DNA of 64,000 bases from an uncultured Gemmatimonadales bacterium (GTDB taxonomy: Bacteria > Gemmatimonadota > Gemmatimonadetes > Gemmatimonadales > GWC2-71-9), in the NCBI GenBank assembly GCA_963779755.1, contig CAVZZO010000001.1, positions 224,001 to 288,000 on the forward strand, given 5' to 3'. Each line of letters opens with the position of its first letter. Position 1 is the first letter of the stretch. A program made the position numbers and the translations under genes. Positions 22,347-37,706 of this stretch are shown piece after piece. The notes under the pieces are model-generated. The model saw only the letters and a list, made by a program, of their open reading frames with translations. It had not been told where the DNA came from and searched no databases.

Positions 22347-22759
22347 TGCCGCGGCTCACCCGCTGGTTCCTGCGCGCCGGGCTGCTGTATCTGGTGGCCG
22401 CACTGGCGCTGGGTGTGGCGCAGAGGTGGCCCGGCCGCGGGCCGGCGATTCTGGCCGCGACCTGGCCGGTCTACATCCATGCGCTGGTGGTCGGCTGGCT
22501 CACCCAGCTGGTCTTCGGCGTCGCCTGGTGGATGTTCCCCCGGGCGCCCGGTCCCCGGCCCCGGGGCAGCGCCCGGGCAGGCTGGATCGTCTTCGTCGCA
22601 CTGAACGCAGGGCTGCTCCTGCGCCTGGGTGCGGAACCGGCCGCGGCGGTGCACTCCAGCACCGCAATCCGCTGGGCCCTGGCCGCCGCCGCCGTCCTTC
22701 AGCTGCTGGCCGGCTGGCTGTTTGTCGTCAGCATCTGGCCGCGGGTCAGGGGCCGCTGA
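22346..22759 (+). CDS. Four-TM membrane protein with conserved His (heme-copper oxidase subunit I fragment-like)
   Basis: [16 protein letters not shown]...HALVVGWLTQLVFGVAWWMFPR; coupled to the upstream stop. Confidence 0.7.
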   Translation: MPRLTRWFLRAGLLYLVAALALGVAQRWPGRGPAILAATWPVYIHALVVGWLTQLVFGVAWWMFPRAPGPRPRGSARAGWIVFVALNAGLLLRLGAEPAAAVHSSTAIRWALAAAAVLQLLAGWLFVVSIWPRVRGR

Positions 22760-22760
22760 G

Positions 22761-23186
22761 ATGCCCCAGTGGTCTATCCGCCTGGTACGCACCGGGCTGC
22801 TCTACCTGGCCGCGGGATTTCTCTTCGGCGCCCTACTCCTGGTGCAGAAAGCAGGGTGGAACATCACGGGCGGCCTGGCCCTGCTGCCGCTGCATACCGA
22901 GTGCGTCCTCATCGGCTGGTTCGTACAAACCACCATGGGGGTGGCCTACTGGATCCTCCCCCGCTATCCCACCCATCCGGAACGGGGCCCCGACTGGCAC
23001 ATGGCCGGAGCCTTCGTGCTCATCAATGTGGGCATCCTGACGACGGCAGCCGGCCTGGCCTGGTCACCTGCCACCGCCGTGCCGCTCGCCGGACGACTGG
23101 CCCAGAGCGGCGCGATACTGCTCTTCGGACTCCATGCCTGGCCCAGGGTACGGCCATTTCTTGCGCCCGGGCCATCACGTCCCTGA
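22761..23186 (+). CDS. Four-TM membrane protein, paralog of the preceding gene
   Basis: MPQWSIRLVRTGLLYL...HTECVLIGWFVQTTMGVAYWILPR...AWPRVR. Confidence 0.7.
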   Translation: MPQWSIRLVRTGLLYLAAGFLFGALLLVQKAGWNITGGLALLPLHTECVLIGWFVQTTMGVAYWILPRYPTHPERGPDWHMAGAFVLINVGILTTAAGLAWSPATAVPLAGRLAQSGAILLFGLHAWPRVRPFLAPGPSRP

Positions 23187-23313: not shown

Positions 23314-23331
23314 GTGTGACCAGGATCACAC
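23314..23331. promoter_or_regulatory. CRP/FNR-family binding site
   Basis: G-TGTGA-CCAGGA-TCACA-C is an exact match to TGTGA-N6-TCACA. Confidence 0.6.
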
Positions 23332-23585: not shown

Positions 23586-24575
23586 ATGGCACGATCGAGT
23601 GCTGCGCTGCGGGCGACGGCCCCGGCCCAAGCCCCAATCACAACCCCACCGGCCACCCCAGGCCGGACCCCGCCGCGCCCCAGGCCGGCCCGCGCTGCCC
23701 CTTCATCGCGCCAGACGCCGAGTCAGCTGCCGTTGATCGTGGTGTTGTCGTCTCTGGCGGTGCTCAACCTGCTGGGTGTGCCGTACTACCTGCTGCCGAT
23801 GAGCGACCGGGTTCGCAGCCCGTTGCATGCCTGGTTCAAACCTTCCGGCTATATCGGCCAGCCGGCAGGTATCCTGGCCTTCACCATCTTCGGGTTCCTC
23901 TGGCTCTACCCGCTGCGCAAGAAGTTCCGCTGGCTGGCCTTCACCGGTTCGGTCGGCCGCTGGCTCGACGTGCACGTCCTCTCGGCCCTGGCGCTGCCGA
24001 TGCTGTTGGCGATTCATGCCAGCTGGCGGTTCGACGGGCTGATCGGCCTGGGCTATGCCGCCATTCTCGTGGTCTGCCTGAGCGGGATCATCGGCCGCTA
24101 TGTGTACGTGCGCATTCCGCGCAGCCGCTCCGGCCTCGAGCTGTCCCTGGAGGAAATCGCGGGCCAGCGCAAGGCGCTGCTGCAGACCATCGCCGAGGCC
24201 ATCGGGCAGGATCCGGACACCGTCGAGCGCATTCTCCAGACCGACCCTGCCTCGTGTGAGGGGCTGGGTGTGGCACACACCGTCGGACGCATGTTCACCG
24301 ACGACATCCGCCGCTGGCGGGCTGCGGCCGAACTGCGGCGGCGCTGGCGGAATTCCGCCAACGGTGCCCGGCTGGACCGGCAGACGCTGCGCCAGGTCCT
24401 GGGGCTGGCTAATCGGGAAATGAAGCTCACCCAGCAGGTCCGGATGCTCTCGGCCACTCACCGGGTTTTCCGCTACTGGCATGTGGCCCACCGCCCGGTG
24501 GCGCTCACGGCGCTGGTTGCGGTGATCGTCCATGTCGCGGTGGTCGTGGCGCTGGGCGCCACCTGGTTCTGGTAG
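23586..24575 (+). CDS. Inner-membrane protein with four TM-associated His (putative heme b / ferric-reductase-like TM domain)
   Basis: AAAGGAG RBS; Y.LRKK, WLDVHV, IHASWRF, SGIIGRYVY, WHVAHRP, IVHV; about 5 TM. Confidence 0.75.
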   Translation: MARSSAALRATAPAQAPITTPPATPGRTPPRPRPARAAPSSRQTPSQLPLIVVLSSLAVLNLLGVPYYLLPMSDRVRSPLHAWFKPSGYIGQPAGILAFTIFGFLWLYPLRKKFRWLAFTGSVGRWLDVHVLSALALPMLLAIHASWRFDGLIGLGYAAILVVCLSGIIGRYVYVRIPRSRSGLELSLEEIAGQRKALLQTIAEAIGQDPDTVERILQTDPASCEGLGVAHTVGRMFTDDIRRWRAAAELRRRWRNSANGARLDRQTLRQVLGLANREMKLTQQVRMLSATHRVFRYWHVAHRPVALTALVAVIVHVAVVVALGATWFW

Positions 24576-24581
24576 CCAGCC

Positions 24582-26033
24582 ATGGAAGCGCTCTACACCA
24601 CCCTGGGCTTCTTCGCTCTGACCGCCGTGTCCATCTGGCTGCACCTGCGGCGGAGCGGGGGGAGCGCCAAGCCGGCCGCGGCCCGGCCGGCCGCCCCGGG
24701 ACGCCCCTGCCCCCGCTGCAGGGCCGGGGTGCCTTCGGGGGCAACCTTCTGCCCCGCCTGCGGCGTGCCGCAGCAGATCTACGAGGTCGTCGCGGCCCCC
24801 ACCGTCACCCGCACCGAATCGGACGGGGAGGAGCGGGTGCATGCCGTTGTGCGGGCGGACATGTGCGTCGGCTGCGGCACCTGTGTCGCGGCCTGCCCGG
24901 AACCCGGTGCCATCGCCCTGCAGGGCAAGCTGGCGGTGGTGGAGCAGGCCGTCTGTGCCGGCCATGGCCAATGCGCCTCGGCCTGCCCCGTGGGCGCCAT
25001 CCTGCTGACCACCGGAGCGGCGGTACACCGGGTCGAAGTGCCTGAGGTCGGCGCCGATTTCCAGACCAACATTCCCGGCATCTACATCGTGGGGGAGCTG
25101 GGCGGCCGCGGCCTGATCAAGAACGCGATCAACGAAGGGAAGATTGCCATCGAGCATATCGCGCTGGAGTTGCCGCCGGGTGAGACGCGGCTGGACGGCG
25201 AAGCCGAAGCGTTTGATGTGGTGATCGTCGGCTCGGGCCCCGCGGGGCTGAGTGCCGGCCTCGAAGCACACCGCCGCGGGTTGCGCTATGTGGTGGTGGA
25301 ACAGGGCTCCCTCTCCGACACCGTGCGTAAGTACCCCCGTCACAAGATTCTCTTCGCCGAGCCGCTGTCGATCCCGCTGTACGGCGATCTCTGGATAGCG
25401 GACGCCTCCAAGGAGACACTGCTCCAGGTCTGGGAAACGATCGTCGCCAACACCGGGCTCGAGGTACGAACCAACCAGCGCATTCAGCAGGTGGCACGCG
25501 TGGACGGCCTGTTCGAGGTCGCCTCCGAAGCCGAGCGATTCCGGACCCGCCGGGTCGTTCTGGCGATGGGGCGCCGGGGCACGCCCCGGCGTCTGGGCGT
25601 TCCCGGAGAAGAGCTGGCGAAGGTGGTCTATGACATCGCCGAGATGGAGGATTTTCGGGGCCGGAAGGTCCTGGTGGTGGGCGGCGGCGACAGCGCCATC
25701 GAGTCGGTGCTCGGCCTGGCCAACCAGGAGGGTACCTCCGCCACCCTGAGCTACCGGGGCGAAGACTTTACCCGCGTGAAGGAACGGAACCGGGCCAAGC
25801 TGGATGCCGCCGTCGAGGCCGGCAGGGTGGGGGTGCAGCTGCGCAGCACGGTGCGGGAGATCCGGCCGGACCGCGTCGTGCTCGATGTCGCCGGCGAGAG
25901 CGCCATCCTTCTCAACGACGATGTCATTGTCCGCATCGGTGGCGACGCGCCCTACGCGTTCCTCGAGCGCCTGGGCATTCGCATCGTGCAGAAAGATGTG
26001 CCGCTCCCCTCCGAGGCCGCGCGCGCCAGTTGA
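24582..26033 (+). CDS. Membrane-anchored Zn-ribbon/2x[4Fe-4S]/FAD-NAD(P)H oxidoreductase (TrxR-like fold)
   Basis: N-terminal TM; CPRC..CPAC; CVGCGTCVAACP and CAGHGQCASACP; VGSGPAGL; AMGRRG; VVGGGDSA; SYRG. Confidence 0.85.
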   Translation: MEALYTTLGFFALTAVSIWLHLRRSGGSAKPAAARPAAPGRPCPRCRAGVPSGATFCPACGVPQQIYEVVAAPTVTRTESDGEERVHAVVRADMCVGCGTCVAACPEPGAIALQGKLAVVEQAVCAGHGQCASACPVGAILLTTGAAVHRVEVPEVGADFQTNIPGIYIVGELGGRGLIKNAINEGKIAIEHIALELPPGETRLDGEAEAFDVVIVGSGPAGLSAGLEAHRRGLRYVVVEQGSLSDTVRKYPRHKILFAEPLSIPLYGDLWIADASKETLLQVWETIVANTGLEVRTNQRIQQVARVDGLFEVASEAERFRTRRVVLAMGRRGTPRRLGVPGEELAKVVYDIAEMEDFRGRKVLVVGGGDSAIESVLGLANQEGTSATLSYRGEDFTRVKERNRAKLDAAVEAGRVGVQLRSTVREIRPDRVVLDVAGESAILLNDDVIVRIGGDAPYAFLERLGIRIVQKDVPLPSEAARAS

Positions 26034-28045
26034 TGCGGGGCGCGGCGGGGGGACTCGCGCTGCTGGCGGCGCTCCTGCTGGCGGCTACTGCACCGCTGGC
26101 GGGACAGATCTCGCCGGGCAAACTGGCCCGGCCGCACGCAGCCCTGGAGGGCCCGCTCAACTGCACCAGGTGCCACGGCGGCCGCGGGACGGAAATGAAG
26201 ACCCGCTGTCTGGCCTGTCACAAGGAAATCGCCTGGCTGATGGAGCGGGGACGGGGCTTCCATGCCACCGATCCCGCGGTGCCCTGCGAGAGCTGTCATC
26301 CGGATCACGCAGGCGAGGATTTCGCCCTGATCAAGTGGCCGGACGGCTCCCGCGACCGGTTTGACCACCGGAGAGCGGGCTGGGCGCTCGAGGGGGCGCA
26401 TGCCGAGGTGAAGTGCGAGGACTGCCACCAGGCCAGGAACCGCAGCGGCCCAGCGGCCCGGCTTTCACCCGGCAAGAGCGGAGCCGGCTGGGTGGGCCTG
26501 GAGCAGGACTGTCTGAGCTGCCACGAAGACGCGCATAACGGGTCGCTGGGCAAGGATTGCACGGCGTGCCACGACATCGGGAAATGGACCTTCGCGGCGC
26601 GGTTCGATCACGCCAGGTCCGATTACCCACTGACCGGGAAGCACCAGGATGTGAAGTGCAACGCGTGCCACCTGCCGGAGGGGCGGCCGGTGCGCCGGAA
26701 CGCCAGGGGAGAGCCGGTGCCCATCTACACGCCGCTCGCGCATGCCCAATGCTCCGACTGCCACCGCGACCCGCACCAGGGCCGTTTCGGGGCCAAGTGC
26801 GCGGACTGCCATCAGACGAGCGGCTTCAAGCTCATCCGGAAGAGCGGCTTCGACCACGACCGCACCCGCTATCCCCTGCGCGGGAAACATGCATCGGTGG
26901 CCTGCGAGAAATGCCACGATCCGAAATCGCCGAGCGGGTTCAAGGTGGCCTTTGCCACCTGCGGCGCCTGTCACCACGACGCCCACGCGGGCCAGGCCAC
27001 GCTGGCGGACAAGCCGGCCGACTGCGCCGACTGTCATACGGTCGACGGGTTCGACGTGCCGGCCTTCACGGTGGCGCGGCACGCCCGCACCCGCTATCCG
27101 CTCCAGGGCAGGCACGCGCGCGCGACATGCACCGCCTGCCACCGGGAACGGCCGGCGGGGGTTCCCGCGGCCAAACTGGGCTCGGCGGGGATTCTGATGC
27201 GGCCCGCCTTTACCCGCTGCCGCGATTGTCATGAAGACGATCACGACGGCCAGCTGGCAGAGCGGCCCGGCGCCGGCGCCTGCGAAGGCTGCCACACGCC
27301 GGAGGGCTGGTCACCGAGCACCTTTACCGCGGCGCGGCACGATTCCCTGCGTCTGACGCTGGTCGGACGGCATCGCGCCATCGCCTGCGCCGCCTGCCAC
27401 GGCCCCGACCGGCCGCGCCTGCCCGCCCTCCCGGCACAGGGGCTGGGGAAGGCGGGCGTGGCGTTGACCATGCTGTCCGCGACCTGCACCAGCTGCCATC
27501 AGGACCCCCATCTGGGACGATTCGAGCCGGCGGGCAAGCAGCCGGTAGCCGGCGGGTGCGAAGCGTGCCACGACTATCAGGGCTTCCGTCCCTCGGCGGT
27601 GGACGTCGAGCGCCACGGCAAGCTGGGTTTCGCGCTGGACGGCGCCCACCGGGCCATTCCCTGCGTGGCGTGCCACGACCAGATGCACTCGCGCACGGCC
27701 GGCAGCACCCTGACGGGGGCGCCCCATCTGCAGGCGGTCTCGCTGGCGGTAAAGGGCTCGAAATGCGCCGACTGCCATACCGATCCGCACGGCGGGCAGT
27801 TTGCCTCCCGCCCCGGCGGGGGCGCCTGCGAGAGCTGCCATACGACCGACGCCTTCCGGCCCGCCGGCCGGTTCGATCACGATCGCGATACGAAGTTCAC
27901 GTTGCGCGGAGCGCACGAGCATGTCGCCTGCGAGGCGTGTCACCACCCCGCGGCGCCGGCCCGGGGGGCCCGGGGGCCCGCGCCGCTCCGATATCGTCCT
28001 CTATCCAGTGCCTGCGAGAGCTGTCACGCGGGAGGGAAGCCATGA
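26033..28045 (+). CDS. Exported multiheme c-type cytochrome, 23 CxxCH
   Basis: Sec signal peptide; 23 CxxCH counted; triheme repeats FDH..x.YPL.G.H...C. Confidence 0.93.
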   Translation: MRGAAGGLALLAALLLAATAPLAGQISPGKLARPHAALEGPLNCTRCHGGRGTEMKTRCLACHKEIAWLMERGRGFHATDPAVPCESCHPDHAGEDFALIKWPDGSRDRFDHRRAGWALEGAHAEVKCEDCHQARNRSGPAARLSPGKSGAGWVGLEQDCLSCHEDAHNGSLGKDCTACHDIGKWTFAARFDHARSDYPLTGKHQDVKCNACHLPEGRPVRRNARGEPVPIYTPLAHAQCSDCHRDPHQGRFGAKCADCHQTSGFKLIRKSGFDHDRTRYPLRGKHASVACEKCHDPKSPSGFKVAFATCGACHHDAHAGQATLADKPADCADCHTVDGFDVPAFTVARHARTRYPLQGRHARATCTACHRERPAGVPAAKLGSAGILMRPAFTRCRDCHEDDHDGQLAERPGAGACEGCHTPEGWSPSTFTAARHDSLRLTLVGRHRAIACAACHGPDRPRLPALPAQGLGKAGVALTMLSATCTSCHQDPHLGRFEPAGKQPVAGGCEACHDYQGFRPSAVDVERHGKLGFALDGAHRAIPCVACHDQMHSRTAGSTLTGAPHLQAVSLAVKGSKCADCHTDPHGGQFASRPGGGACESCHTTDAFRPAGRFDHDRDTKFTLRGAHEHVACEACHHPAAPARGARGPAPLRYRPLSSACESCHAGGKP

Positions 28046-29532
28046 TGCGAATGCCGCGATGGATGCTGCCGGCCTGCGCCCTGCTGTGCCTGCTGGGCGT
28101 GCCGGCCCTCCAGGGGCAGGAGGTGACCCAGTCCCCGCACGGGCAGCTGAAAGAGGCCTGCGCCGACTGCCATTCCTCCTCCGGGTGGACGCCGGCCCAC
28201 ATCAGCCGGGCGTTCGATCACGGCAAGTCCGGCTTCGCCCTGACCGGGGCGCACGCCCAGACCGCCTGCCGTTCCTGCCATGCCTCGCTCACGTTCACGG
28301 GCGCGCCGAAGGACTGCGTCAACTGCCACAAGGACGTGCACGGCGGCGAGCTGGGGGTGGACTGCGCCCGCTGCCATACGCCGCGGTCGTTCGTCGACCG
28401 GGCCCGCATGGTGCAGATGCACCAGGCGACGCGCTTCCCGCTGACGGGGACGCATGCCGTGGCCGATTGCGAGGCCTGCCATGAGGCCAGGGGCCAGGGC
28501 GGCCTCACCTGGGTGAACCGCCCCACGCAGTGTCAGGACTGCCACATTTCCAGCTACCTGGCGACCACCAATCCCGATCACCAGGCCAGCGGCTTCCCGC
28601 GCACCTGCGACCAGTGCCATGCCTCCAGTGTCTGGAACCGGGCACGCTTCAATCATGATGCCTCGGGCTTCCCGTTGACCGGGGCACACCGCAGCACCGC
28701 GTGCGACCAGTGCCACGGCGACGGCGTCTACACAGGCAAGCCGACCGCCTGCGTGGCCTGCCACCAGCAGGACTACAACGGAACCACGAACCCGAACCAT
28801 CAGCAGTCCGGCTTCCCGACCAGCTGCACCGACTGCCACACCACCACCAGCTGGCAGGGCGCCACCTTTGATCACAATACGACGCAGTTCCCGCTCACCG
28901 GATCGCATAAGGCAGTGCCCTGCGACCAGTGCCACGGGGACGGCGTGTACAAGGGCAAGCCGACCGCCTGCGTGGCCTGCCACCAGCAGGACTACAACGG
29001 AACCACGAACCCGAACCACCAGCAGTCCGGTTTCCCGACCAGCTGCACCGACTGCCACACCACCACCAGCTGGCAGGGCGCCACCTTTGATCACAATTCG
29101 ACGCAGTTCCCGCTCACCGGATCGCATAAGGCAGTGCCCTGCGACCAGTGCCACGGCGACGGCGTCTACGCCGGCAAGCCGACTGCCTGCGTCGCCTGCC
29201 ATCAGACGGACTACAACGGCACGACCAACCCGCCGCATCAGGCCTCGGGGTTCCCGACGACCTGCGCCGACTGCCATACCACCAGCGGGTGGACGGGCGC
29301 CACGTTCAACCACGACGGGCCCTACTTCCCCATCTACTCGGGGACCCACCTCGGCCGCTGGATCTCGTGTGCGGACTGCCACACCAATCCGAGCGCGTAT
29401 TCGCAGTTCAGCTGCATTACCTGCCACGACCACAGCCAGTCGAATACCGACGGGCATCACACCGGCGTATCGGGCTACCAGTACAACAGCCAGGCATGCT
29501 ACAGCTGCCATCCCACGGGGAGGGCCGGATGA
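28042..29532 (+). CDS. Exported multiheme c-type cytochrome, 19 CxxCH
   Basis: Signal peptide; 19 CxxCH counted; 73-aa triheme repeats; Thr/Gln/Asn-rich. Confidence 0.93.
   Translation: MMRMPRWMLPACALLCLLGVPALQGQEVTQSPHGQLKEACADCHSSSGWTPAHISRAFDHGKSGFALTGAHAQTACRSCHASLTFTGAPKDCVNCHKDVHGGELGVDCARCHTPRSFVDRARMVQMHQATRFPLTGTHAVADCEACHEARGQGGLTWVNRPTQCQDCHISSYLATTNPDHQASGFPRTCDQCHASSVWNRARFNHDASGFPLTGAHRSTACDQCHGDGVYTGKPTACVACHQQDYNGTTNPNHQQSGFPTSCTDCHTTTSWQGATFDHNTTQFPLTGSHKAVPCDQCHGDGVYKGKPTACVACHQQDYNGTTNPNHQQSGFPTSCTDCHTTTSWQGATFDHNSTQFPLTGSHKAVPCDQCHGDGVYAGKPTACVACHQTDYNGTTNPPHQASGFPTTCADCHTTSGWTGATFNHDGPYFPIYSGTHLGRWISCADCHTNPSAYSQFSCITCHDHSQSNTDGHHTGVSGYQYNSQACYSCHPTGRAG
28702..29312 (+). 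repeat. 219-bp in-frame tandem repeat (two near-identical units plus a diverged partial third)
   Basis: TGCGACCAGTGCCACGG recurs at 28702, 28921 and 29140. Confidence 0.92.
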
Positions 29533-31118
29533 TCCGCATACCACTCGCTGTCCCGGTCCTCCTGGCGCTCATGCTGGGCCCGCTCCGCAGCGCGGCGGCG
29601 CAGGACTCTACCCGCACAGACTCTACCCGCTCGGCGCGGATAACCTACCTTACCGCCGACGCCGTGTATCTCGATGCCGGTCGGGAGGAGGGCCTGGAAG
29701 AAGGCGCCAGAGTGGACCTGCTGCATGGCGGCCAGGTGACTGGGGAGCTGCGGGTACGCTATCTCTCGTCCCACCGCGCCTCCTGCGAAGTGGTCCGGGC
29801 CGACCCCACCCCGGCGGTGGGCGACTCGGTCCGCTTTATCCCTGCGGAGAAGCAGCCGGCCGCCGCCGCCGTGAAACCGGCGGGTGAGAACCGCGAGTCC
29901 TTTCGCCGGCGTCCGCGGAGCGTGCGCGGCCGGGTGGGACTGCGCTATCTCGTCATCCGCCAGAAGGACCTGGGCAGCGCGGGCGTGAGCCAGCCCGCGC
30001 TGGACGTGCGCATGGACGGCGCGGGGCTGGGGGGCTCGCCCGTCGGGGTGACCGTCGACGTGCGCGCCCGGCGGACCACGAGCACGCAAGTGGACGGCAG
30101 CCAGTCGAGCAACGATCGCTACCGGGTCTACCAGCTGGCTCTCAACTGGAATACCCCGGGTTCGCCCCTGCGGATGACGCTGGGCCGCCAGTTTTCGGCT
30201 CCGCTCGCTACGGTCAGCTTCTTCGACGGCCTGACGGCGGAGTACAACCGGCCCTCCTGGAGCTTCGGCCTCTTCGGCGGCACCCAGCCGGATGCGATCG
30301 ATTTCGGCTACTCCAACGATATCCGTGAGCTGGGCGGATACCTCCAGCTTCATAACCGCCCGGCCGGATCCCGGCTCTGGACGCTGACCCTCGGCGGGGT
30401 GGGGTCGTACGGGGCCGTGGCGACCAACCGCGAGTTCGCCTTCCTCTCCGCCAGCTACAGCGACCGGCATTTCTCGTTCTACGGGACGCAGGAGGTCGAC
30501 TACAACCGGCCCTGGAAAGTGGCGCAGGGCGATCCCACCGTCAGCCCGACCAGCACCTTCCTGACGGCGTCGTATCGCGTCGGGTCCGGTTTCTCTTTCC
30601 ATGGCGGCTTCGACAACCGGCGCAACGTGCGGCTCTATCGTGACCTGATCAATCCGGAAACCCGGTTCGACGATTCCTACCGGCAGGGGATCTATGGGGG
30701 CCTGTCCCTGGCCTTCGGCGGCCGCTACCGCCTGGGGCTCGATGCCCGCTCCAGCCGCGGCGGCACCGCCGGGCCGGCGAATGCCTATACCGTCTCACTC
30801 GGGGCTGATCGCCTGACCTCACTGAACCTGGGTCTGCACACCCGGACCACCCGCTATACCACACCTGCGCTGACCGGCTGGCTGCATTCGGCCGACGTGG
30901 CGCTCATCGGCGGCCCCGCCCGCCTCGAGCTCAACGGCGGGCTGCGGCTGGAACACAACCCGCTCGACGATCCGCCCGACAGCCGGCTCACCTGGCTGGG
31001 GGCAGACCTGGACCTGAGCCTGAGCCGGGCCTGGTATTTCCTGCTGTCGGTGCGGCGGGAACGCGGCGGGATCGACGCGAACGACCAGTTGTACGGGGGG
31101 ATCAGCTGGCGCTTCTGA
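29529..31118 (+). CDS. Outer-membrane beta-barrel protein (putative cytochrome-associated porin) with small N-terminal domain
   Basis: Signal peptide; many amphipathic beta-strands; C-terminal LYGGISWRF beta-signal; coupled to the cytochrome gene. Confidence 0.78.
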   Translation: MIRIPLAVPVLLALMLGPLRSAAAQDSTRTDSTRSARITYLTADAVYLDAGREEGLEEGARVDLLHGGQVTGELRVRYLSSHRASCEVVRADPTPAVGDSVRFIPAEKQPAAAAVKPAGENRESFRRRPRSVRGRVGLRYLVIRQKDLGSAGVSQPALDVRMDGAGLGGSPVGVTVDVRARRTTSTQVDGSQSSNDRYRVYQLALNWNTPGSPLRMTLGRQFSAPLATVSFFDGLTAEYNRPSWSFGLFGGTQPDAIDFGYSNDIRELGGYLQLHNRPAGSRLWTLTLGGVGSYGAVATNREFAFLSASYSDRHFSFYGTQEVDYNRPWKVAQGDPTVSPTSTFLTASYRVGSGFSFHGGFDNRRNVRLYRDLINPETRFDDSYRQGIYGGLSLAFGGRYRLGLDARSSRGGTAGPANAYTVSLGADRLTSLNLGLHTRTTRYTTPALTGWLHSADVALIGGPARLELNGGLRLEHNPLDDPPDSRLTWLGADLDLSLSRAWYFLLSVRRERGGIDANDQLYGGISWRF

Positions 31119-31202
31119 TCCACAGATGGCGCAGATGACACCGATGGCACCGATGGCACCGATGGCACCGATGTCTGTGCCATCGGTGTCATCTGTAGAT
31201 CA
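31116..31202. repeat. Nonamer (CACCGATGG) tandem/inverted repeat element between convergent operons; probable bidirectional terminator
   Basis: Six direct units at 31121-31173 and inverted units at 31174-31202; ends TGATCCACAGATG / CATCTGTAGATCA. Confidence 0.88.
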
Positions 31203-31985
31203 CAGATCTTTCCTCTCGAATCTGCGGAGCCCGAGCCACAGCGGCACCGCCGTCCAGACCAGCAGGGCCGCCACGGAAAGCAGAGTGCCCAGCGCGCTCC
31301 CGAAGAAGCGCTCGAAAACGGCGCCGGTGTAACCCATCATCGCCGCGATATCGAACCGCAGCAACAGCAGGATGCGGCCCAGATCCACCGGGTTGAGCAG
31401 CGTGAGTACCAGCAACGGCCGCTCCAGGGGATAATCCCCGAACGAGGTGACCGCCACCAGCAGGATACCGTCGTACAGCACCGTCATCGCCAGCCACAGC
31501 AGGATGGCGGCGCCCAGCCCGCGCGCCCGGTCCTCGAACAGCAGCGCCGCCAGGAAGGCCACTCCGGTAAAGACGGCAGTCAGCAGTACGCCGGTGCCGA
31601 TCAGCGTCGCCAGGGTGAGCGCCACATCCGGTCCGCCATGCCAGAAAAAGGGAAGCGCCACCCCCAGCGCGAAGGCCGAGGCCAGGGGCAGGACCAGCCC
31701 GCCATAGAGCCCGGCGTAGAGCGCCCGCCGGCCTACCGGTTGGGCCAGCAGCAGCTCGATGAACTCCCGCGCGTTGTAGAGATACATCGTGCCGAACACC
31801 ACGCTCACCAGCGGGACGAACACCAGCACGACATTGGACAGGCTGAGCACCGCCCGCGGGCCCCCACCTCCGAAGCGGAGCAGGGCGTCGGTGAGGAGGA
31901 GGAGCAGCAGGCCGTAGCCCAGGATCCAGCGGCTGCGCCGCACATTCTGCAGCTCATAGTGCAGCACCTTCATGGTGGCGTTCAT
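31200..31985 (-). CDS. nosY: Nos maturation ABC transporter permease
   Basis: Multi-TM; EFIELLLAQP, LNPVDLGRI, AAMMGYTGA; last gene of the nos operon. Confidence 0.88.
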   Translation of the reverse strand: MNATMKVLHYELQNVRRSRWILGYGLLLLLLTDALLRFGGGGPRAVLSLSNVVLVFVPLVSVVFGTMYLYNAREFIELLLAQPVGRRALYAGLYGGLVLPLASAFALGVALPFFWHGGPDVALTLATLIGTGVLLTAVFTGVAFLAALLFEDRARGLGAAILLWLAMTVLYDGILLVAVTSFGDYPLERPLLVLTLLNPVDLGRILLLLRFDIAAMMGYTGAVFERFFGSALGTLLSVAALLVWTAVPLWLGLRRFERKDL

Positions 31986-32761
31986 GCGGCGCCTCCCCGC
32001 ATCAGCCGGGCGATGGCCCGCTCCAGCCGGTGCTCCCCGGTGGCCTCCCGCAGCCGCCGTAACGAGCCGTGAAACCGGATCCGCCCCTCCAGGAGAAACA
32101 CGACGTCTTCCACCAGGTCCTCCAGCTCGCTCAGGACATGCGAGCTAATGAGGACGGTCACGCCCCGCTTCCGGGCGGCCAGGATGTGCTCCTTCAGGAT
32201 GCCGCTGGCGATGGGGTCCAGGCCCGCGGTAGGCTCATCCAGCACCAGCAGGGCGGGGCGGAAAAGGAAGGCAATGGCGGCGTTGAGCTTCTGCCGGGTC
32301 CCGCCGCTCAGCGCTCGCACCGGCTTGTCCAGGTCGCCCTCGAGATCAAACTCCCGCAGGAGCCGCCGGTCGGGCGTGTCCCGGCGCCCCCGCAGGTCCT
32401 GCAGCAGATCCAGCACCTCCCGCCCGGCCAGGTTCTCGGGAAACCGTGCCTGCTGCGGCATGTACCCGATGCGCTCCCGATAGCCGCAGCCTGCGTCCAC
32501 CGACTCGCCCCCCACCACAATGCGGCCCCGGTCGGGGCGGGTCAGGCCAAGCACGCACCTGATCAGTGTGGACTTGCCGGCGCCGTTGGGGCCGAGCACC
32601 GCGGTGATTCGCCCGGCCGCCAGGGTCAGATCCACACCCTCCAGGGCGGGCCGCCGGCCGAATCGCTTTCGCAGCCCGCTGATTTCCACGGCGGCGGGCG
32701 CGCCGGGGTGGGGGGTCACCAGGTGCAGGCCCGCATCCGCCAAGGCCAGGGGCGCATTCAT
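31982..32761 (-). CDS. nosF: Nos maturation ABC transporter ATPase
   Basis: GPNGAGKS, GYMPQ..RFPENL, LSGGTRQK, LDEPTAGLDP, SSH. Confidence 0.9.
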   Translation of the reverse strand: MNAPLALADAGLHLVTPHPGAPAAVEISGLRKRFGRRPALEGVDLTLAAGRITAVLGPNGAGKSTLIRCVLGLTRPDRGRIVVGGESVDAGCGYRERIGYMPQQARFPENLAGREVLDLLQDLRGRRDTPDRRLLREFDLEGDLDKPVRALSGGTRQKLNAAIAFLFRPALLVLDEPTAGLDPIASGILKEHILAARKRGVTVLISSHVLSELEDLVEDVVFLLEGRIRFHGSLRRLREATGEHRLERAIARLMRGGAA

Positions 32762-33999
32762 GAGGGCCACCGCATGAGCGGCCGGTCGTCGACCAGGGTT
32801 TCGGGCGTGAGCACGGGCAGTACCCGTTCGGCGGTATCCAGCAGGTCAATCAGAAAGCTGCGCATGAGGATGAGTGCGGGCTCGTGTTCGGCCACGACCA
32901 GCGAGAAGAGCCGGACCGGCCGGTAGGGGACGTCGCCCCGGCCGTCCCGGTCCAGGTCGTACCCGGTGTAGTGGTCCCAGTAGTTGCCGGTGAAGCTGCT
33001 GTGGCTGCTCCGGCTGTTGGTGGCGACGTCGAAACTGTTTCCCAGAAAGGCGTTGCGCCGGAAGGTGTCGTCCAGCGAGCTGGCCGTGATACGTACCGCC
33101 CAGCCGTTCTCCTCGAACCGGTTCCCGCTTACCGTCACCCGGCTCGAGGTCTCCAGCACCAGCCCCACGCTGTTGCCGCGAAAGCGGTTGTCCTCCACCC
33201 GGCTGCCGGTGATCTCCTTGAGCAGCAGTCCGTAGGCCGAGCCGCCCCGGCTCTGCGCGAAGAGATTGCCGGTCATGGTCATGTGGTGGGTGTACATGAC
33301 CGCGACGCCCGCTCCGTTGCCGGTGAAGACGTTGCGATCGTAGCGGCAGCTGTCCGAAAACATGAAGTGCAGCCCGTAGCGCAGGTTGGCCGAGCTGGTG
33401 TTCCCCCGGATCAGCGCGTGGTGCACAAATTCGAAATAGAGGCCGTCGCGGTGGCCGGTGAGCACATTATTCTCGATGACGAAACCGCTGGACGACCAGA
33501 GATGAATCGCATTGCCGGAGCCGGCCTCGCTGCGCGCGCGGCCTTCCACCCGGTTGCCGCGCAGCACGCAGTCGCGCGATTTCGCGGCATAGATGCCGAA
33601 GAAGGTATTGACCAGCCGGTTGTTCTCCAGCCGGCAGCCGCGGACGCCCTCCAGCCGGATCCCGGCCCGGTCCTCCATGTAACTGGTGCCGACGTTTCGC
33701 ACCAGCAGCCCCTGCAGCACCACGCTGTCCGCCCGGACCAGCAGCACGCCGTGCGTCCCGCCGCCGTCCAGCACGGGATAGTCCCGCCCGATGATAGTGA
33801 CGCGCCGATCTACCAGGATGGTCGGTTCCCGGTACACGCCGGGCTCCACCAGGATGGTATCGCCGGGGTGCGCGCGGCTGATCGCCAACCCGAGCGACGG
33901 CAGCGGGCCGCCGGGCGAGACCACCAGCTGCTGCGCCTCCGCCGCGCCCGCCCCCAGCCAGGTCAGGCCCGCGAGCAGGACCGCCAGCCGGCGGATCAT
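32758..33999 (-). CDS. nosD: Nitrous oxide reductase maturation protein (beta-helix)
   Basis: GNAIHLW, HRDGLYFEF, RYGLHFMFS, GNYWDHY.GYDLDRDGRGDVPY. Confidence 0.94.
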   Translation of the reverse strand: MIRRLAVLLAGLTWLGAGAAEAQQLVVSPGGPLPSLGLAISRAHPGDTILVEPGVYREPTILVDRRVTIIGRDYPVLDGGGTHGVLLVRADSVVLQGLLVRNVGTSYMEDRAGIRLEGVRGCRLENNRLVNTFFGIYAAKSRDCVLRGNRVEGRARSEAGSGNAIHLWSSSGFVIENNVLTGHRDGLYFEFVHHALIRGNTSSANLRYGLHFMFSDSCRYDRNVFTGNGAGVAVMYTHHMTMTGNLFAQSRGGSAYGLLLKEITGSRVEDNRFRGNSVGLVLETSSRVTVSGNRFEENGWAVRITASSLDDTFRRNAFLGNSFDVATNSRSSHSSFTGNYWDHYTGYDLDRDGRGDVPYRPVRLFSLVVAEHEPALILMRSFLIDLLDTAERVLPVLTPETLVDDRPLMRWPS

Positions 34000-34472
34000 G
34001 GAGTTCCCCCGGCGGCCTGCATGTGCGGATCGGGGAGCCGCAGGACCGCCTGCCAGCTCAGCACCTCTCCGCCGACCAGGTGCTGCAGGCTGTCCGCCTC
34101 GGCGCCCGGGCGCACGGCGGCGAGCCCGCTCCCCATGGGCGTATGCAGCCGGTCGCTGCGGAGATAGACGGCGCTGTCCGCCGGGAGGCGCCGCTCCGGC
34201 TGGAAGAAATCGTTGACCCAGAGGCCGGCGACGGCCGCCGTGTCGACCCGCCCCCCGCGATAGAATCGCGCCAGGCAACCGGCCTCATCGAAGGCGTAGA
34301 CTTTCCCCCTACGGGTCACCAGCTGCGCCGCATACCGCGGCTCGGCAATGGTCATGTGGCAGTGATCGCAGGCCTGCCGGCCGTATGCAATGGGCGCCGG
34401 TGGAGCGGCGGAGCCGCCGCATCCCTGGAGCACGGCCAGCAGCAGCAACAGGAACACCGGACGCGACCTCAC
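33996..34472 (-). CDS. nosL: Copper chaperone lipoprotein
   Basis: Lipobox LQGC; CDHCHMTI, FDEAGC, TPMGSG. Confidence 0.9.
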   Translation of the reverse strand: MRSRPVFLLLLLAVLQGCGGSAAPPAPIAYGRQACDHCHMTIAEPRYAAQLVTRRGKVYAFDEAGCLARFYRGGRVDTAAVAGLWVNDFFQPERRLPADSAVYLRSDRLHTPMGSGLAAVRPGAEADSLQHLVGGEVLSWQAVLRLPDPHMQAAGGTP

Positions 34473-35107
34473 ACCGCCACCGTTTCGGAACGAGCCGGGC
34501 GGACGGAGGAGGCCCGCGCCGGGCCGTTCCCCGCCTTGCGCCGGCGCCCCTCCAGCAGAAAGATCCCCAGGGCAACCGCCACCACGCCAAAGGCGACCCA
34601 GGCGCCCGCCGCCGGCCAGGAGAAGGCGTGGAAGTTCAGCATCTGGCGGCCGCCGAGCAGCGGCGGCTGATACGACATTCCGGGGATCTTGATGGCGGCG
34701 TGCGGGTTGAGATTATGGCCGTAGTCGTATTCCCACTTGTAGAAGTCGGCCAGCCCGCCGGCGGCCAGGGCCAGGAACACGGCCAGCCACACCCCCAGCA
34801 TCCAGCGCCGCCCGCCCGCCGCCGCGGCCAGCCCCAGCAGAATGAGCCCGCGCACGATCCAGGGCATGATACGGAGCTCGGGAATGGCGTCGGGGTCGAT
34901 CGCCTTCATGCCGATGTAGTGGTTGAGGCCGTTGATGCTCTGCAGATCCTGGGGCTTCTCGCCGCGGATGTGATCCATCTCGATGTAGAGCCCCAGGCCT
35001 TCGGGATATTGCGGCGCCTTGAGCGCGATATGCCACAGCGGCAGGGCGTAGAGCAGGCCCAGCGCAAGCACGGCGACGGCAAGCAGGATTCGAGAGGACC
35101 GTTGCAT
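34469..35107 (-). CDS. nosB: Clade II nos membrane protein
   Basis: PLWHI.L.APQYPEGL, INGLNHYIGM, YDYGHNL, YQPPLLG; 4 TM; directly after nosZ. Confidence 0.88.
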   Translation of the reverse strand: MQRSSRILLAVAVLALGLLYALPLWHIALKAPQYPEGLGLYIEMDHIRGEKPQDLQSINGLNHYIGMKAIDPDAIPELRIMPWIVRGLILLGLAAAAGGRRWMLGVWLAVFLALAAGGLADFYKWEYDYGHNLNPHAAIKIPGMSYQPPLLGGRQMLNFHAFSWPAAGAWVAFGVVAVALGIFLLEGRRRKAGNGPARASSVRPARSETVAV

Positions 35108-35127
35108 CACATCTTCTCCCATCCAAG

Positions 35128-35200
35128 ACCTGGGACTGAAGACCGGGGACTGAGCCGAGACCGTGGAAGCCTCGCTCAGTCCTCAGCCTCCAGCCCTGGT
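35128..35200. repeat. Degenerate heptamer inverted-repeat hairpin between nosZ and nosB
   Basis: GGGACTGA..GGGGACTGAGC versus GCTCAGTCCTCAGCCTCCAGCCC. Confidence 0.7.
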
Positions 35201-37167
35201 TACTGCGGAGTGTTGTAGGTGACCGCCACCTGCGAACCCCGCGGCGACACCCGGATGTAGCCCTGCATCTCCTGGTGAAGAGCGGAGCAGAAATCGGTGC
35301 AGTAGAACGGAAAGACTCCGATCTTCTGCGGCACCCAGACCAGGGTCCGGGTCTGCCCCGGCATGATGAGCAGCTCGGCGTTCTGATTCCCCAGCACCGC
35401 GAACCCGTGCGGGACATCCCAGTCCTGCTCCAGGTTGGTAACGTGGAAGTAGACGGAATCGCCCAGCTGCACGCCTTCGATATTATCGGGCATGAAGTGA
35501 CTGCGGATCGCCGTCATATACACGTGCACCTTGCTGCCCTCCCGCACCACCTTCGCGTCCTTTTCGCTCCGGGTGACGAAGGGGTCCTTGCTGTCGGCCA
35601 GGGAGTAGGTCTTGACCTGCTTGTCCTTGATGATGGAGGCCGGCAGCGCCTGCGCGTAATGCGGCTCTCCGATGGTGGGGAAGTCGAGCAGCATCTTCAT
35701 CTTGTCGCCGCTGATGTCGATCAGCTGGGCCGATTGGGTCAGCTCGGGCCCGGTGGGCAGGTAGCGGTCCTTGGTGATCTTGTTGAGCGCCACCAGGTAC
35801 TTGCCCCAGGGCTGATGGCTGTCGCCGCCCGGAATCATCAGATGGCCGATAGAGTAGTACACCGGAATCCGGTCTACCACCTTGAAGTCCTTCAGGCTCC
35901 ACTTCACCACCTCGGAGCTGATGAACATCGAGGTATAGGCGTAGCCCTTGCCGTCGAACTCGGTGTGCAACGGCCCCAGCCCGGGGTTCTGCACCTCGCC
36001 GGCCAGAACGGATTCATACTTCAGCACCGGGATGCCGTCGACCTCGCCCTCGAATTCCCGGTTCTCGATCGCCTTCAGCATCTTCGTGAAGGAATGCACC
36101 GGGATCACCGTGGAGAGCTTGCCCCCCGCCGCAATGAACTCGCCGGTGGGATCCACGTTGACGCCGTGCGGCGACTTGGGGGTGGGAAGGAAGTAAATCA
36201 TCCCCGGGCAGTCCTGGACGTTGAGCACCTTCACGCTGGTGAGCATCTCGCTCCTGGCGCGCTGGTCCTCTCCGATCCAGTTATGCGCGTACCGGGCAGG
36301 CTCCGTCCGCGCCTTGCCCGCGCCGACACACTGTTCAGCCTGTTTCCAGTTCACGGCGGCGACATAATCTTTGTCCTTCTGCGAGGCATTCACCTCCAGC
36401 AGGGTGTGTGCCTGCTCCGAGTTGTAGGAGGTGAAGAAGGCCCACCCGCTGGACGGGCCCTTGCCGGCGCGGGCCAGGTCGTAATCGAAGCCCGGAACCC
36501 TGATCTGAAAGGCGATCGCCATGCGGCCGGTGGAGGAATCCACCTTCGTGAAGGTGATCAGGCCGGCGAATGCTTTGGCATAATCGGCAATGGACACGTC
36601 GCGCTGAGGCGTCGGGACGCTGAATCGGGTCGCGGCCACGGCGTATTCGGTATTCGACGTCACGAAGGGGGACGCATGGTTGCCCGCCGAGTTCGGGATC
36701 TCCAGGATTTCGTCGGTCTCGAACCGGGTCAGGTCCAGCCGGGCGATCCGGGGCGTGTTGTTGCCATTGATAAACAGCCAGCGGCCGTCGGGAACACCGC
36801 CGGTCTGAGACAGTTCGGGGTGGTGGGCATCATCCCACGGCACAAACCCGTAACTGGTCATCAGCATGTTCTTGGTGTCTTCGCTGTATCCGTAGCCGTT
36901 TTCCGCATTCTGCGCGAAGACCGGCACCAGCCGCAGCAGGCGCCCGGAAGGAAGGCCATACACGCCGACCTGGCCGTTGAACCCGCCCGACATGAACGCG
37001 TAGAACTCATCGTACTTGCCTGGGGGGACGTACACCCGCTGGGCCGCATCGCCGGCGCTGGCGACGGCCGGCGTATCGCTCGTGCCGCAACCGCTCAGCG
37101 ACAGCGCGCCGGCGGTGAGGGCCAGCATCCCGAATCCCGAAAGGGGAAACCGCATCCTGCCGAACAT
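35200..37167 (-). CDS. nosZ: Sec-dependent clade II nitrous oxide reductase
   Basis: GGAGG RBS; lipoprotein-type signal LSGC with no Tat motif; FMSGG, WDDAHH, GNH, PKSPHG, LGPLH, GEPH; CuA motif CTDFCSALHQEM. Confidence 0.97.
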   Translation of the reverse strand: MFGRMRFPLSGFGMLALTAGALSLSGCGTSDTPAVASAGDAAQRVYVPPGKYDEFYAFMSGGFNGQVGVYGLPSGRLLRLVPVFAQNAENGYGYSEDTKNMLMTSYGFVPWDDAHHPELSQTGGVPDGRWLFINGNNTPRIARLDLTRFETDEILEIPNSAGNHASPFVTSNTEYAVAATRFSVPTPQRDVSIADYAKAFAGLITFTKVDSSTGRMAIAFQIRVPGFDYDLARAGKGPSSGWAFFTSYNSEQAHTLLEVNASQKDKDYVAAVNWKQAEQCVGAGKARTEPARYAHNWIGEDQRARSEMLTSVKVLNVQDCPGMIYFLPTPKSPHGVNVDPTGEFIAAGGKLSTVIPVHSFTKMLKAIENREFEGEVDGIPVLKYESVLAGEVQNPGLGPLHTEFDGKGYAYTSMFISSEVVKWSLKDFKVVDRIPVYYSIGHLMIPGGDSHQPWGKYLVALNKITKDRYLPTGPELTQSAQLIDISGDKMKMLLDFPTIGEPHYAQALPASIIKDKQVKTYSLADSKDPFVTRSEKDAKVVREGSKVHVYMTAIRSHFMPDNIEGVQLGDSVYFHVTNLEQDWDVPHGFAVLGNQNAELLIMPGQTRTLVWVPQKIGVFPFYCTDFCSALHQEMQGYIRVSPRGSQVAVTYNTPQ

Positions 37168-37217
37168 GTGGTAACCTCCAAGAAGGCCAGGGGCCGGTTG
37201 GACGTGAGGTGTCGCGC

Positions 37218-37706
37218 TTACTTGCCGGCGGCCGTGGTATCCACGGACCGGAAATACTCCAGCAGATCCCGCGCTTCCTCGCGCGTGAGGTTCAGATTGG
37301 GCATCTGAGTCATGTACTCGCCCAGCAGCTGCCGGGCGGCGGGATGTTTGTTGTACATCCCGTCGGGGTTGAGGATCATGTTCATGACATAGGCGGGAGT
37401 GCGCCGCTCGGTGACCTGCCCCAGGGGCGGCCCCACATAGCGTTGATCCAGTTTGTGGCAGGCGCTGCACTTGCTCTCGAAGAGTTTCTCCCCCCGTTCC
37501 GCCATCTCATGGTCCACCGGCCCCACCTCGACCGCCTGGGTGACCGGCCCAATGCCGTTTTCCAGCTGGAAGGGCGTGAGGCCTGTATCAGCCGCCGCGG
37601 CAGGGGCCTCGGAGTCGCCGGACTGCGAGTCGCCCTTCCCACCACAGCCGGCAGCGAATACCAGGGCAGCCACCAGAGCGAATCTGTTAAATGATTGTGA
37701 AACCAT
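37218..37706 (-). CDS. Monoheme cytochrome c lipoprotein (NosC-like)
   Basis: Lipobox AAGC; CSACH, VGPPL, distal QMP; immediately upstream of nosZ. Confidence 0.9.
   Translation of the reverse strand: MVSQSFNRFALVAALVFAAGCGGKGDSQSGDSEAPAAAADTGLTPFQLENGIGPVTQAVEVGPVDHEMAERGEKLFESKCSACHKLDQRYVGPPLGQVTERRTPAYVMNMILNPDGMYNKHPAARQLLGEYMTQMPNLNLTREEARDLLEYFRSVDTTAAGK

Follow-up and report, generated by a model that had tools for sequence, protein, structure and literature searches.

We analysed a stretch of 64,000 nucleotides (hereafter the window; 68% G+C) from the 4.23-Mb genome of an uncultured Gemmatimonadales bacterium of the phylum Gemmatimonadota (assembly GCA_963779755.1, contig CAVZZO010000001.1, positions 224,001 to 288,000 of the forward strand). 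It contains a cluster of five genes, here named A to E, for a membrane protein, an iron-sulfur flavoprotein, two very large c-type cytochromes and a β-barrel protein (Table 1). The reading that we favour, with confidence balanced evenly between belief and doubt, is that the cluster encodes a PCC3-type conduit across the cell envelope that has its own cytoplasmic input enzyme and would carry electrons from NAD(P)H to the outside, bypassing quinones. A conduit is supported by one part per compartment, coupled genes, 42 CxxCH motifs, a predicted barrel and strong synteny, and domain content together with synteny suggests direct coupling to NAD(P)H. We infer the cofactors, the contact between A and B, the identity of the outer cytochrome, the electron donor and the direction of flow.

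Table 1. Features of the conduit locus and its surroundings (positions are those of the window)
Feature	Position	Strand	Size or basis
Perfect palindrome TGTGA-N6-TCACA	23315-23330		256 bp upstream of gene A
Gene A, PCC3-type membrane protein	23586-24575	+	329 aa
Gene B, iron-sulfur flavoprotein	24582-26033	+	483 aa
Gene C, 23-heme cytochrome c	26030-28045	+	671 aa
Gene D, 19-heme cytochrome c	28042-29532	+	496 aa
Tandem repeat within D	28702-29303	+	219 bp × 2.7 copies, 90% identity; Tandem Repeats Finder score 966
Gene E, outer-membrane β-barrel protein (predicted)	29529-31118	+	529 aa
nosY (ABC-2 permease)	31200-31985	−	family match
nosF (ABC ATPase)	31982-32770	−	family match
nosD	32758-34278	−	family match
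Membrane protein P0121, unannotated	34469-35122	−	open reading frame, 217 aa
nosZ	35200-37470	−	nos_propeller match

The initial annotation of this DNA had described five co-oriented, nearly touching genes, and all five open reading frames (ORFs) are present on the + strand at the bounds that it gave. A and B are separated by 6 bp, whereas the junctions B/C, C/D and D/E are overlaps of 1-4 bp (TGATG or ATGA); the five genes are translationally coupled. Its total of 42 CxxCH motifs was reproduced by recounting, with 23 in C and 19 in D and no CX3-4CH variants, which corresponds to 29.2 and 26.1 residues per heme, respectively, and to a motif density far above chance. The components that it listed are all there but in a different order: the cluster opens with the membrane protein, and the flavo-FeS protein follows. 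Long ORFs on the opposite strand, such as one of 546 aa at 23703-25343 (−), were set aside: those tested gave no family matches, and such frames are expected at this G+C content.

In the proposed path, B, tethered to the inner membrane by an N-terminal helix, would oxidise NAD(P)H at its FAD and pass the electrons through its two iron-sulfur clusters to A. Within A they would move from an inner b heme (held by H130/H302) to an outer b heme (H144/H316) and in this way cross the inner membrane. C, with 23 hemes, would span the periplasm, and D, with 19 hemes, would be located in or beyond the barrel E and reduce Fe(III) or Mn(IV) minerals, humics or partner cells. The inner module would follow the logic of a split NADPH oxidase/ferric reductase or of MsrQ-Fre, with no need for the quinone pool, and the path would conserve no energy by itself, serving as an electron vent. 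That A and B form a new entry module for extracellular electron transfer, a NOX-like two-component system that delivers electrons from NAD(P)H straight into a cable of more than 40 hemes without quinones, is a proposal that we regard as a real possibility and put forward tentatively.

The inner-membrane protein and its flavoprotein partner

Hydropathy and an AlphaFold2 (AF2) model, which is all helical (pLDDT 71.5), indicate about five membrane helices in A, with a helical insertion of ~110 residues (176-295) that separates helices 4 and 5 and is predicted to be cytoplasmic. The protein carries the motifs W126-x3-H130-x13-H144, S166-G167-x-x-G170 and W298-x3-H302-x13-H316. W126, H130, S166, G167, G170, W298, H299, H302 and H316 are invariant in 27 homologues and H144 is nearly so; in 18 more distant sequences (28-43% identity) the four histidines and SGxxG are still invariant. 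The conservation of the transmembrane histidines, whose absence the initial annotation would have taken as a refutation, was thereby borne out. Judged by the charges of its loops, the N-terminus (7 K+R, 0 D+E), loop 107-122 (4 and 0) and the insertion of A are predicted to face the cytoplasm, and with this topology H130/H302 would lie near the inner and H144/H316 near the outer face of the membrane. Two HX13H pairs on two helices, as in the transmembrane domain of ferric reductases and NOX enzymes, are present and conserved, and A probably binds two b hemes.

Some relatives of A match the Ferric_reduct, cytochrome b561 and DUF4405 models below threshold. A itself fails the ferric reductase/NOX model (PF01794), with which one relative, P0185, scores 20.4 bits (cut-off 28). 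Searching PDB sequences with a profile of A gave nothing below E 0.5, and a wide search of its model with VIA returned generic helical bundles only (ABC-exporter helices, Z 8-10, root-mean-square deviation (rmsd) 9-11). The ESM Atlas matches of A belong to Gemmatimonadota and Acidobacteriota clusters and, in one further case, to a cluster that was automatically named after the neighbouring oxidoreductase. By profile search the A family comprises 4230 cluster representatives at E≤1e-3, and 711 of them reach E≤1e-30.

B starts with a hydrophobic helix and RR, after which come a Cys4 zinc-ribbon-like motif (residues 43-60, below the Pfam threshold), a two-cluster ferredoxin domain (88-140; Pfam Fer4_21/Fer4_10) and an FAD/NAD(P)H domain with the fold of thioredoxin reductase (TrxR; 211-475; Pfam Pyr_redox_3, 1.3e-41, with Pyr_redox_2 also matched). 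It is predicted to be a membrane-anchored iron-sulfur flavoprotein that faces the cytoplasm. The FAD motif GxGPxG (217-222), the NAD(P)H motif GGGDxA (367-372), R392 and the ferredoxin cysteines C95, C101, C105, C125, C131 and C135 are invariant across 31 homologues, and in the forms from Bacteroidota the second cysteine of the first ferredoxin motif (C98) is replaced. The second cluster motif reads C-x2-H-x2-C-x3-CP, with a histidine that is nearly invariant (once Gln) at the place of the second cysteine. A full set of 4+4 cysteines was never found in the ferredoxin domain of the aligned homologues. From these motifs, the clusters may be of the [3Fe-4S] or the His-ligated [4Fe-4S] type.

Beyond residue 135, B contains no cysteine at all. 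Since the flavoprotein part lacks cysteines, a role as a disulfide reductase of the TrxR type is impossible; the redox-active CxxC is absent, and B scores 69.1 bits with the thioredoxin reductase model TIGR01292 (cut-off 343) and 169.1 bits with the YpdA/Bdr model TIGR04018 (cut-off 339.9). Among solved proteins, those closest to B are Bdr/YpdA (7a7b, 1.1e-30), followed by TrxR-like ferredoxin-NADP reductases (FNRs; 1e-15 to 1e-9). The best sequence matches of the flavoprotein domain (7a7b, 5ygq, 3ab1, 6gas and 3lzw) are NAD(P)H-FAD enzymes, as predicted for B, and likewise have no TrxR CxxC, but they do not have the N-terminal membrane helix, the zinc ribbon or the two-cluster ferredoxin domain. 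In short forms of B the alignment begins no earlier than about residue 70-95, and all 14 of those that were extended upstream start with a hydrophobic helix and basic residues, suggesting that the membrane anchor is general and the zinc ribbon alone is optional.

Prediction of an A-B complex gave a score of 0.00, which is evidence neither for nor against contact. Among the longer proteins in 150 listed profile matches, P0222, P0143 and P0169 contain both A and B sequences and are likely frameshifted read-throughs, while P0263 has the A domain alone behind an unrelated N-terminal stretch and is not an A-B fusion. All four show an Arg/Pro/Gly-rich stretch in place of real sequence, and because they look like products of frameshift or read-through they were dropped as Rosetta-stone evidence.

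For a characterization of the linkage between the two genes, we compared 256 loci around A homologues, of which 20 were selected by genome, 80 with a close profile, 80 with a profile of distant members and 76 as new loci via a third profile; some contigs recur across these sets, so that the counts are not independent. In three collection scans, between 438 and 577 stretches per scan were confirmed to encode a relative of A; among the Gemmatimonadota, 45 of the 201 genomes sampled have a homologue, and these represent 26 of 98 genera. Of the 241 assessable loci, 239 have B no more than 10 kb from A (20/20, 77/78, 76/76 and 66/67); one of the two misses is a B fragment at a contig end, and the other is locus L058. 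B is located between A and C (adjacent), divergently upstream of A, or past the porin gene (distal), with 4/10/5, 29/45/2 and 63/1/12 loci of the three kinds in the successive sets and one other arrangement in each of the first two. That the linkage of A and B outlasts rearrangement of position and strand argues for a shared function.

Together with A, the complete set of B, C, D and E was detected by tblastn in 14/18, 44/45 and 46/51 loci with flanks of no less than 8.5 kb downstream of A and 2.5 kb before it, so the co-occurrence elsewhere that the initial annotation had set as a check is strongly supported. The barrel gene, which is fast-evolving, is the absentee in nine of the ten incomplete loci, and four distant Gemmatimonadota loci have a gap of the right size between D and B where the barrel was not detected. 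According to the labels of the records, which may be wrong for metagenome-assembled genomes (MAGs), the carriers include Gemmatimonadota, Acidobacteriota, Eisenbacteria, Latescibacteria, Krumholzibacteriia, Zixibacteria, Calditrichota (Caldithrix abyssi among them) and many Bacteroidota (Ignavibacteria, Melioribacter, Saprospiraceae, Bacteroidales and Flavobacteriales). Saccharicrinis and Chitinophaga are further names on these labels. Relatives also occur in single MAGs labelled Planctomycetota, Chlorobiota and Alphaproteobacteria.

In NADPH oxidases and ferric reductases (NOX/FRE) and in MsrQ-Fre, an NAD(P)H flavoenzyme on the cytoplasmic side supplies a membrane protein, which moves the electrons outward by way of b hemes held by His pairs 13 apart on two helices. 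The A-B pair would share this logic and has the same spacing of the paired histidines. The known flavoproteins have the FNR fold, whereas B, a polypeptide of its own with its own anchor, joins a ferredoxin domain to the TrxR fold. A differs from NOX/FRE by its five helices, its 110-residue cytoplasmic insertion and its failure to match Pfam Ferric_reduct. The proposed acceptor here is a multiheme cytochrome; in NOX/FRE and MsrQ-Fre it is O2, Fe3+ or MsrP. Entry of electrons from NAD(P)H is favoured because B, near-obligate though shuffled, joins an NAD(P)H/FAD module, a ferredoxin domain and an anchor, and because A is built like the diheme domain of NOX/FRE, which is fed by cytoplasmic NAD(P)H.

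Cytochromes and barrel

C and D both have a Sec-type signal peptide and match Pfam Cytochrome_C7 (5.5e-28 and 1.9e-26, respectively). Their family matches are of the generic multiheme kind (Cytochrome_C7, c3), with the exception that D passes the Pfam model of the pentaheme MtrC/MtrF domain II/IV with 42.1 bits at a cut-off of 30. For neither protein was a solved relative found by sequence (for C at E≤0.01). Each 73-residue unit of the tandem repeat in D holds three CxxCH motifs, and the near-identity of the units suggests a recent gain of heme units. Since the number of repeats differs among related genomes, the length of the wire appears to evolve quickly. Among 66 Bacteroidota-type loci, 60 have 20 or 23 hemes in the cytochrome that comes first after A/B, while the summed hemes of the later cytochrome(s) vary from 13 to 47 in these loci and from 8 to 70 in the Gemmatimonadota-type set.

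Seven Bacteroidota-type loci (L118, L119, L151, L164, L173, L177 and L180) have a second or third cytochrome with 43-48 CxxCH motifs in one ORF of ~1000-1270 aa, consistent with the giant cytochromes described for activated-sludge Bacteroidota (PMC11495043). Some Gemmatimonadota loci (L024:4186-12446 and L067:12936-19504) contain a second cytochrome and barrel set in tandem (D-E-C-D-E or D-E-D-E), which suggests that the outer module was duplicated behind one inner module.

In E, a signal peptide and a small N-terminal β domain (34-103) are followed by a disordered linker and by about 22 strands (133-528). Its AF2 model (pLDDT 72.1, pTM 0.68) gave 321 matches against the PDB with Foldseek at E≤0.001, headed by the PapC usher pore (2vqi_B, 1.7e-10), and re-alignment with VIA gave barrel matches at Z 15-16, the best being 22-strand TonB-dependent transporters such as PirA (5fp2_B, Z 16.4, rmsd 4.7, 353 residues aligned). 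No Pfam or NCBIfam match was obtained at E≤0.01. MtrB is not among the structure matches listed by Foldseek or VIA, but E may still resemble it. The suggestion of the initial annotation that the last protein is a porin agrees with the model and with both sets of structure matches, and E is predicted to be a large outer-membrane barrel.

In its outer half, the cluster would follow the outer-membrane logic of MtrCAB (Shewanella) and OmaB-OmbB-OmcB (Geobacter), in which a barrel-sheathed cytochrome touches an outer cytochrome, and the match of D to the MtrC/MtrF model is a further likeness to MtrCAB. A decaheme cytochrome of the MtrA/DmsE family is absent, as D reaches 27.7 bits with TIGR03508 (cut-off 192.2) and C has no match to it; E has no MtrB-type Pfam match, with ~22 strands; and the cytochromes exceed those of MtrCAB or the Geobacter Pcc systems two- to fourfold in size. 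MtrCAB and the Geobacter Pcc systems receive their electrons from quinol through CymA, ImcH or Cbc.

Relation to predicted conduits and direction of electron flow

Putative PCC3 clusters were predicted from genomes of Sideroxydans, Leptothrix and other Proteobacteria by He et al. (2017; PMC5566968). Their PCC3 membrane protein is described as having ~300 aa and five transmembrane helices, of which the third and fifth carry WX3HX13H and the fourth SGXXG, and the authors tie this pattern to two b hemes and the diheme ferric-reductase domain. The periplasmic subunit is given 21, 24 or 27 hemes and the outer one 10-35 by Hoover et al. (2023; PMC10734462). The cluster analysed here likewise combines a barrel, two very large, repeat-rich cytochromes with low ratios of residues to hemes and a motif-bearing membrane protein of ~300 aa and five helices, so that the motifs, the barrel gene and the two large cytochromes that mark PCC3 are all found in it. 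Heme numbers are 23 in C (20 or 23 in relatives) compared with 21-27 in the periplasmic PCC3 cytochrome, and 19 in D (8-70 in relatives) compared with 10-35 in the second one. The likeness is one of motifs and architecture, not of sequence alignment; the collection scans for A homologues gave FCB-type relatives and the one MAG labelled Alphaproteobacteria.

There are also clear differences. As described in PMC5566968, PMC10734462 and 10.1101/2025.02.27.639646, proteobacterial PCC3 consists of four genes and includes no flavoprotein, whereas here the iron-sulfur flavoprotein B is a near-constant fifth member. The gene order is inner-membrane protein (IMP), B, two multiheme cytochromes (MHC) and porin, compared with extracellular MHC, porin, periplasmic MHC and IMP in the PCC3 of Sideroxydans CL21, and the hosts are Gemmatimonadota, Bacteroidota and allies instead of Proteobacteria. 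Furthermore, the published PCC3 model couples the membrane protein to quinones, unlike the reading favoured here. The initial annotation had named no characterised system with this architecture, while allowing for similar clusters in genome surveys. No characterised complex was matched here either, but the predicted PCC3 type does match in its defining motifs and parts. The whole architecture is hence not new, and the new part is apparently the flavoprotein partner B, for which a word-based search of the literature outside subscription journals found no description in such clusters.

Among Ignavibacteria, one of the carrier lineages, the account of Arbour et al. (2020; PMC7399161) names OmbB-like and MtrB-like clusters only. 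PCC4, in the main text of He et al. (PMC5566968), has a membrane protein with the same motif set as A, and in its subgroup II an Fe-S gene (pfam13247) lies directly upstream of the membrane-protein gene, with 'other redox-active proteins' in the cluster. It differs from the cluster here by three small periplasmic cytochromes with 4, 5 and 10 hemes and by having no extracellular one. Judged by that main-text description, the redox genes of PCC4 may include a TrxR-like flavoprotein.

Several results weigh against the reading of an NAD(P)H-fed conduit. A has no Pfam or NCBIfam match (E≤0.01 for Pfam) and no significant match to models of heme-b families, and its fold is unmatched, as Foldseek found nothing in the PDB at E≤0.001. 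The use of pyridine nucleotides by B, and the choice between NADH and NADPH, are predicted from motifs alone; the longer proteins among the 150 profile matches include no genuine A-B fusion; and locus L058 has no B in spite of sufficient flank. A clear lipoprotein signal (lipobox) is found in neither C nor D, which by analogy only would be the counterparts of the periplasmic PCC3 cytochrome and of the variable, presumed outer one. With its 22 strands the modelled E is smaller than MtrB, a barrel of 26 strands, and may lack the room to sheathe a cytochrome. PCC3 itself is predicted from genomes and has been termed 'functionally unverified' (10.1101/2025.02.27.639646), and the membrane protein of PCC3 and PCC4 has been modelled as a quinone-active diheme cytochrome b (PMC5566968).

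The last point leads to a quinone-linked PCC3, in which A would trade electrons with the menaquinone pool and B would be an accessory and not the obligatory entry, for example a membrane-bound, NDH-2-like NAD(P)H:quinone reductase or a cytoplasmic outlet similar to DsrMK/HdrDE. We consider this unlikely, although it deserves serious attention. It accords with the published model and with the description of proteobacterial PCC3 without a flavoprotein, and the Pyr_redox_2 match places B in the superfamily of flavoproteins with two dinucleotide domains, to which NDH-2 belongs as well. No NapC/NrfD-type gene was found in the cluster by Pfam and NCBIfam scans, in agreement with the initial annotation, and as He et al. 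proposed for PCC3, quinone chemistry at A may be possible in spite of this. On the other hand, the conserved two-cluster ferredoxin domain of B is suited to transfer between proteins and would be superfluous in a simple NAD(P)H:quinone reductase, ~99% of the assessable loci keep B together with A, and a quinone-site motif was not identified in A, though none was sought.

The lack of a clear lipobox, together with the fact that the best structural matches of E are transporters and porins and not MtrB, could also mean that the system is not extracellular. C and D would then be a periplasmic electron store or a reductase of soluble substrates, and E an ordinary channel or a barrel similar to TonB-independent transporters; a 'capacitor' role has been raised for very large cytochromes (PMC11495043, PMC10734462). 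We regard this as improbable. The barrel gene is syntenic with the cytochrome genes in 14/18, 44/45 and 46/51 loci of sufficient flank, the variation in heme number is centred on the D-type gene, as would be expected of a part that faces variable substrates outside, and D passes the MtrC/MtrF domain model.

For the NAD(P)H-fed conduit, an outward direction of flow is favoured, by textbook inference, because Fe(III) or humic acceptors lie downhill of NAD(P)H (−320 mV) and because electrons moving outward follow the membrane potential. In an inward conduit, NAD(P)+ or another cytoplasmic acceptor would receive, via A and B, electrons drawn from Fe(II), minerals, cathodes or partner cells outside. 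To this we attach little probability: by textbook values, transfer from donors of the Fe(II) type to NAD(P)+ (−320 mV) is steeply uphill and also opposes the membrane potential, and no part for energy coupling is visible in the cluster. Moreover, the carrier labels are mostly those of organotrophic lineages, as are Gemmatimonadota, Bacteroidota and Calditrichota. Inward flow would nevertheless be in line with the occurrence of PCC3 in Fe(II) oxidisers, for which it has been modelled (PMC5566968), with the significant upregulation of the membrane-component gene of one PCC3 copy of Sideroxydans CL21 on the iron-oxidation day (10.1101/2025.02.27.639646), and with the ability of Mto/Mtr multiheme conduits to work in both directions (PMC10734462).

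Flanking regions and implications

Gene A is preceded by a spacer of ~400 bp that is richer in A+T and contains a perfect TGTGA-N6-TCACA palindrome, the sole match in the window (0.00 expected from 100 shuffles). Of 39 related loci, 12 (L045, L047, L053, L054, L064, L066, L071, L073, L081, L091, L099 and L111) have copies with at most one mismatch within an 800-bp stretch around the point where the A match starts, and the density of such sites there is 6.6 times that in the remaining sequence of those loci. Part of this enrichment may be explained by the base composition of intergenic regions. The palindrome is a candidate site for a regulator of the CRP/FNR family and hints at control of the cluster by such a regulator. 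Just upstream of this promoter region, at 22629-23186 (+), lies a gene for a small membrane protein, P0122 (~140 aa from the first Met), whose only match is below threshold, to cytochrome oxidase subunit I (20.7 bits, cut-off 34.8).

Downstream, a nos cluster (31200-37470, −) is convergent with the conduit genes and begins 81 bp from the end of E, a distance too short for a nosL-like ORF. We take its gene order to resemble that of clade II nos clusters. The adjacency of genes for NosZ, NosD, an ABC ATPase and an ABC-2 permease raises the idea that the conduit supplies electrons to the nitrous-oxide reductase, which we judge very improbable indeed. The convergent genes are not co-transcribed with the conduit, a periplasmic enzyme would have no need of an outer-membrane barrel, and within ~10 kb none of 100 related loci has tblastn matches to nosZ, nosD or nosY, the only hits being weak ABC-ATPase matches of 27-36% identity. 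A functional link to the nos genes was therefore rejected for want of conserved linkage.

The known outer-membrane conduits (Mtr, Pcc and Ext) draw on quinol. If our reading is true, an NAD(P)H-fed conduit would be a different bioenergetic solution, a vent for redox balancing and not a proton-motive branch of respiration. B, apparently an undescribed fifth member, alters the mechanism proposed for PCC3; the published quinone-based model of PCC3 and PCC4 would then need revision, and the PCC3/PCC4 clusters of iron oxidisers would be given a concrete inner-membrane mechanism. The A family is large, with thousands of cluster representatives, and the phyla that carry it are abundant in soil, activated sludge and sediments and are seldom considered electroactive. 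If true, many bacteria of these habitats, among them Gemmatimonadota, Bacteroidota and Calditrichota, could discharge reducing power onto minerals and humics.

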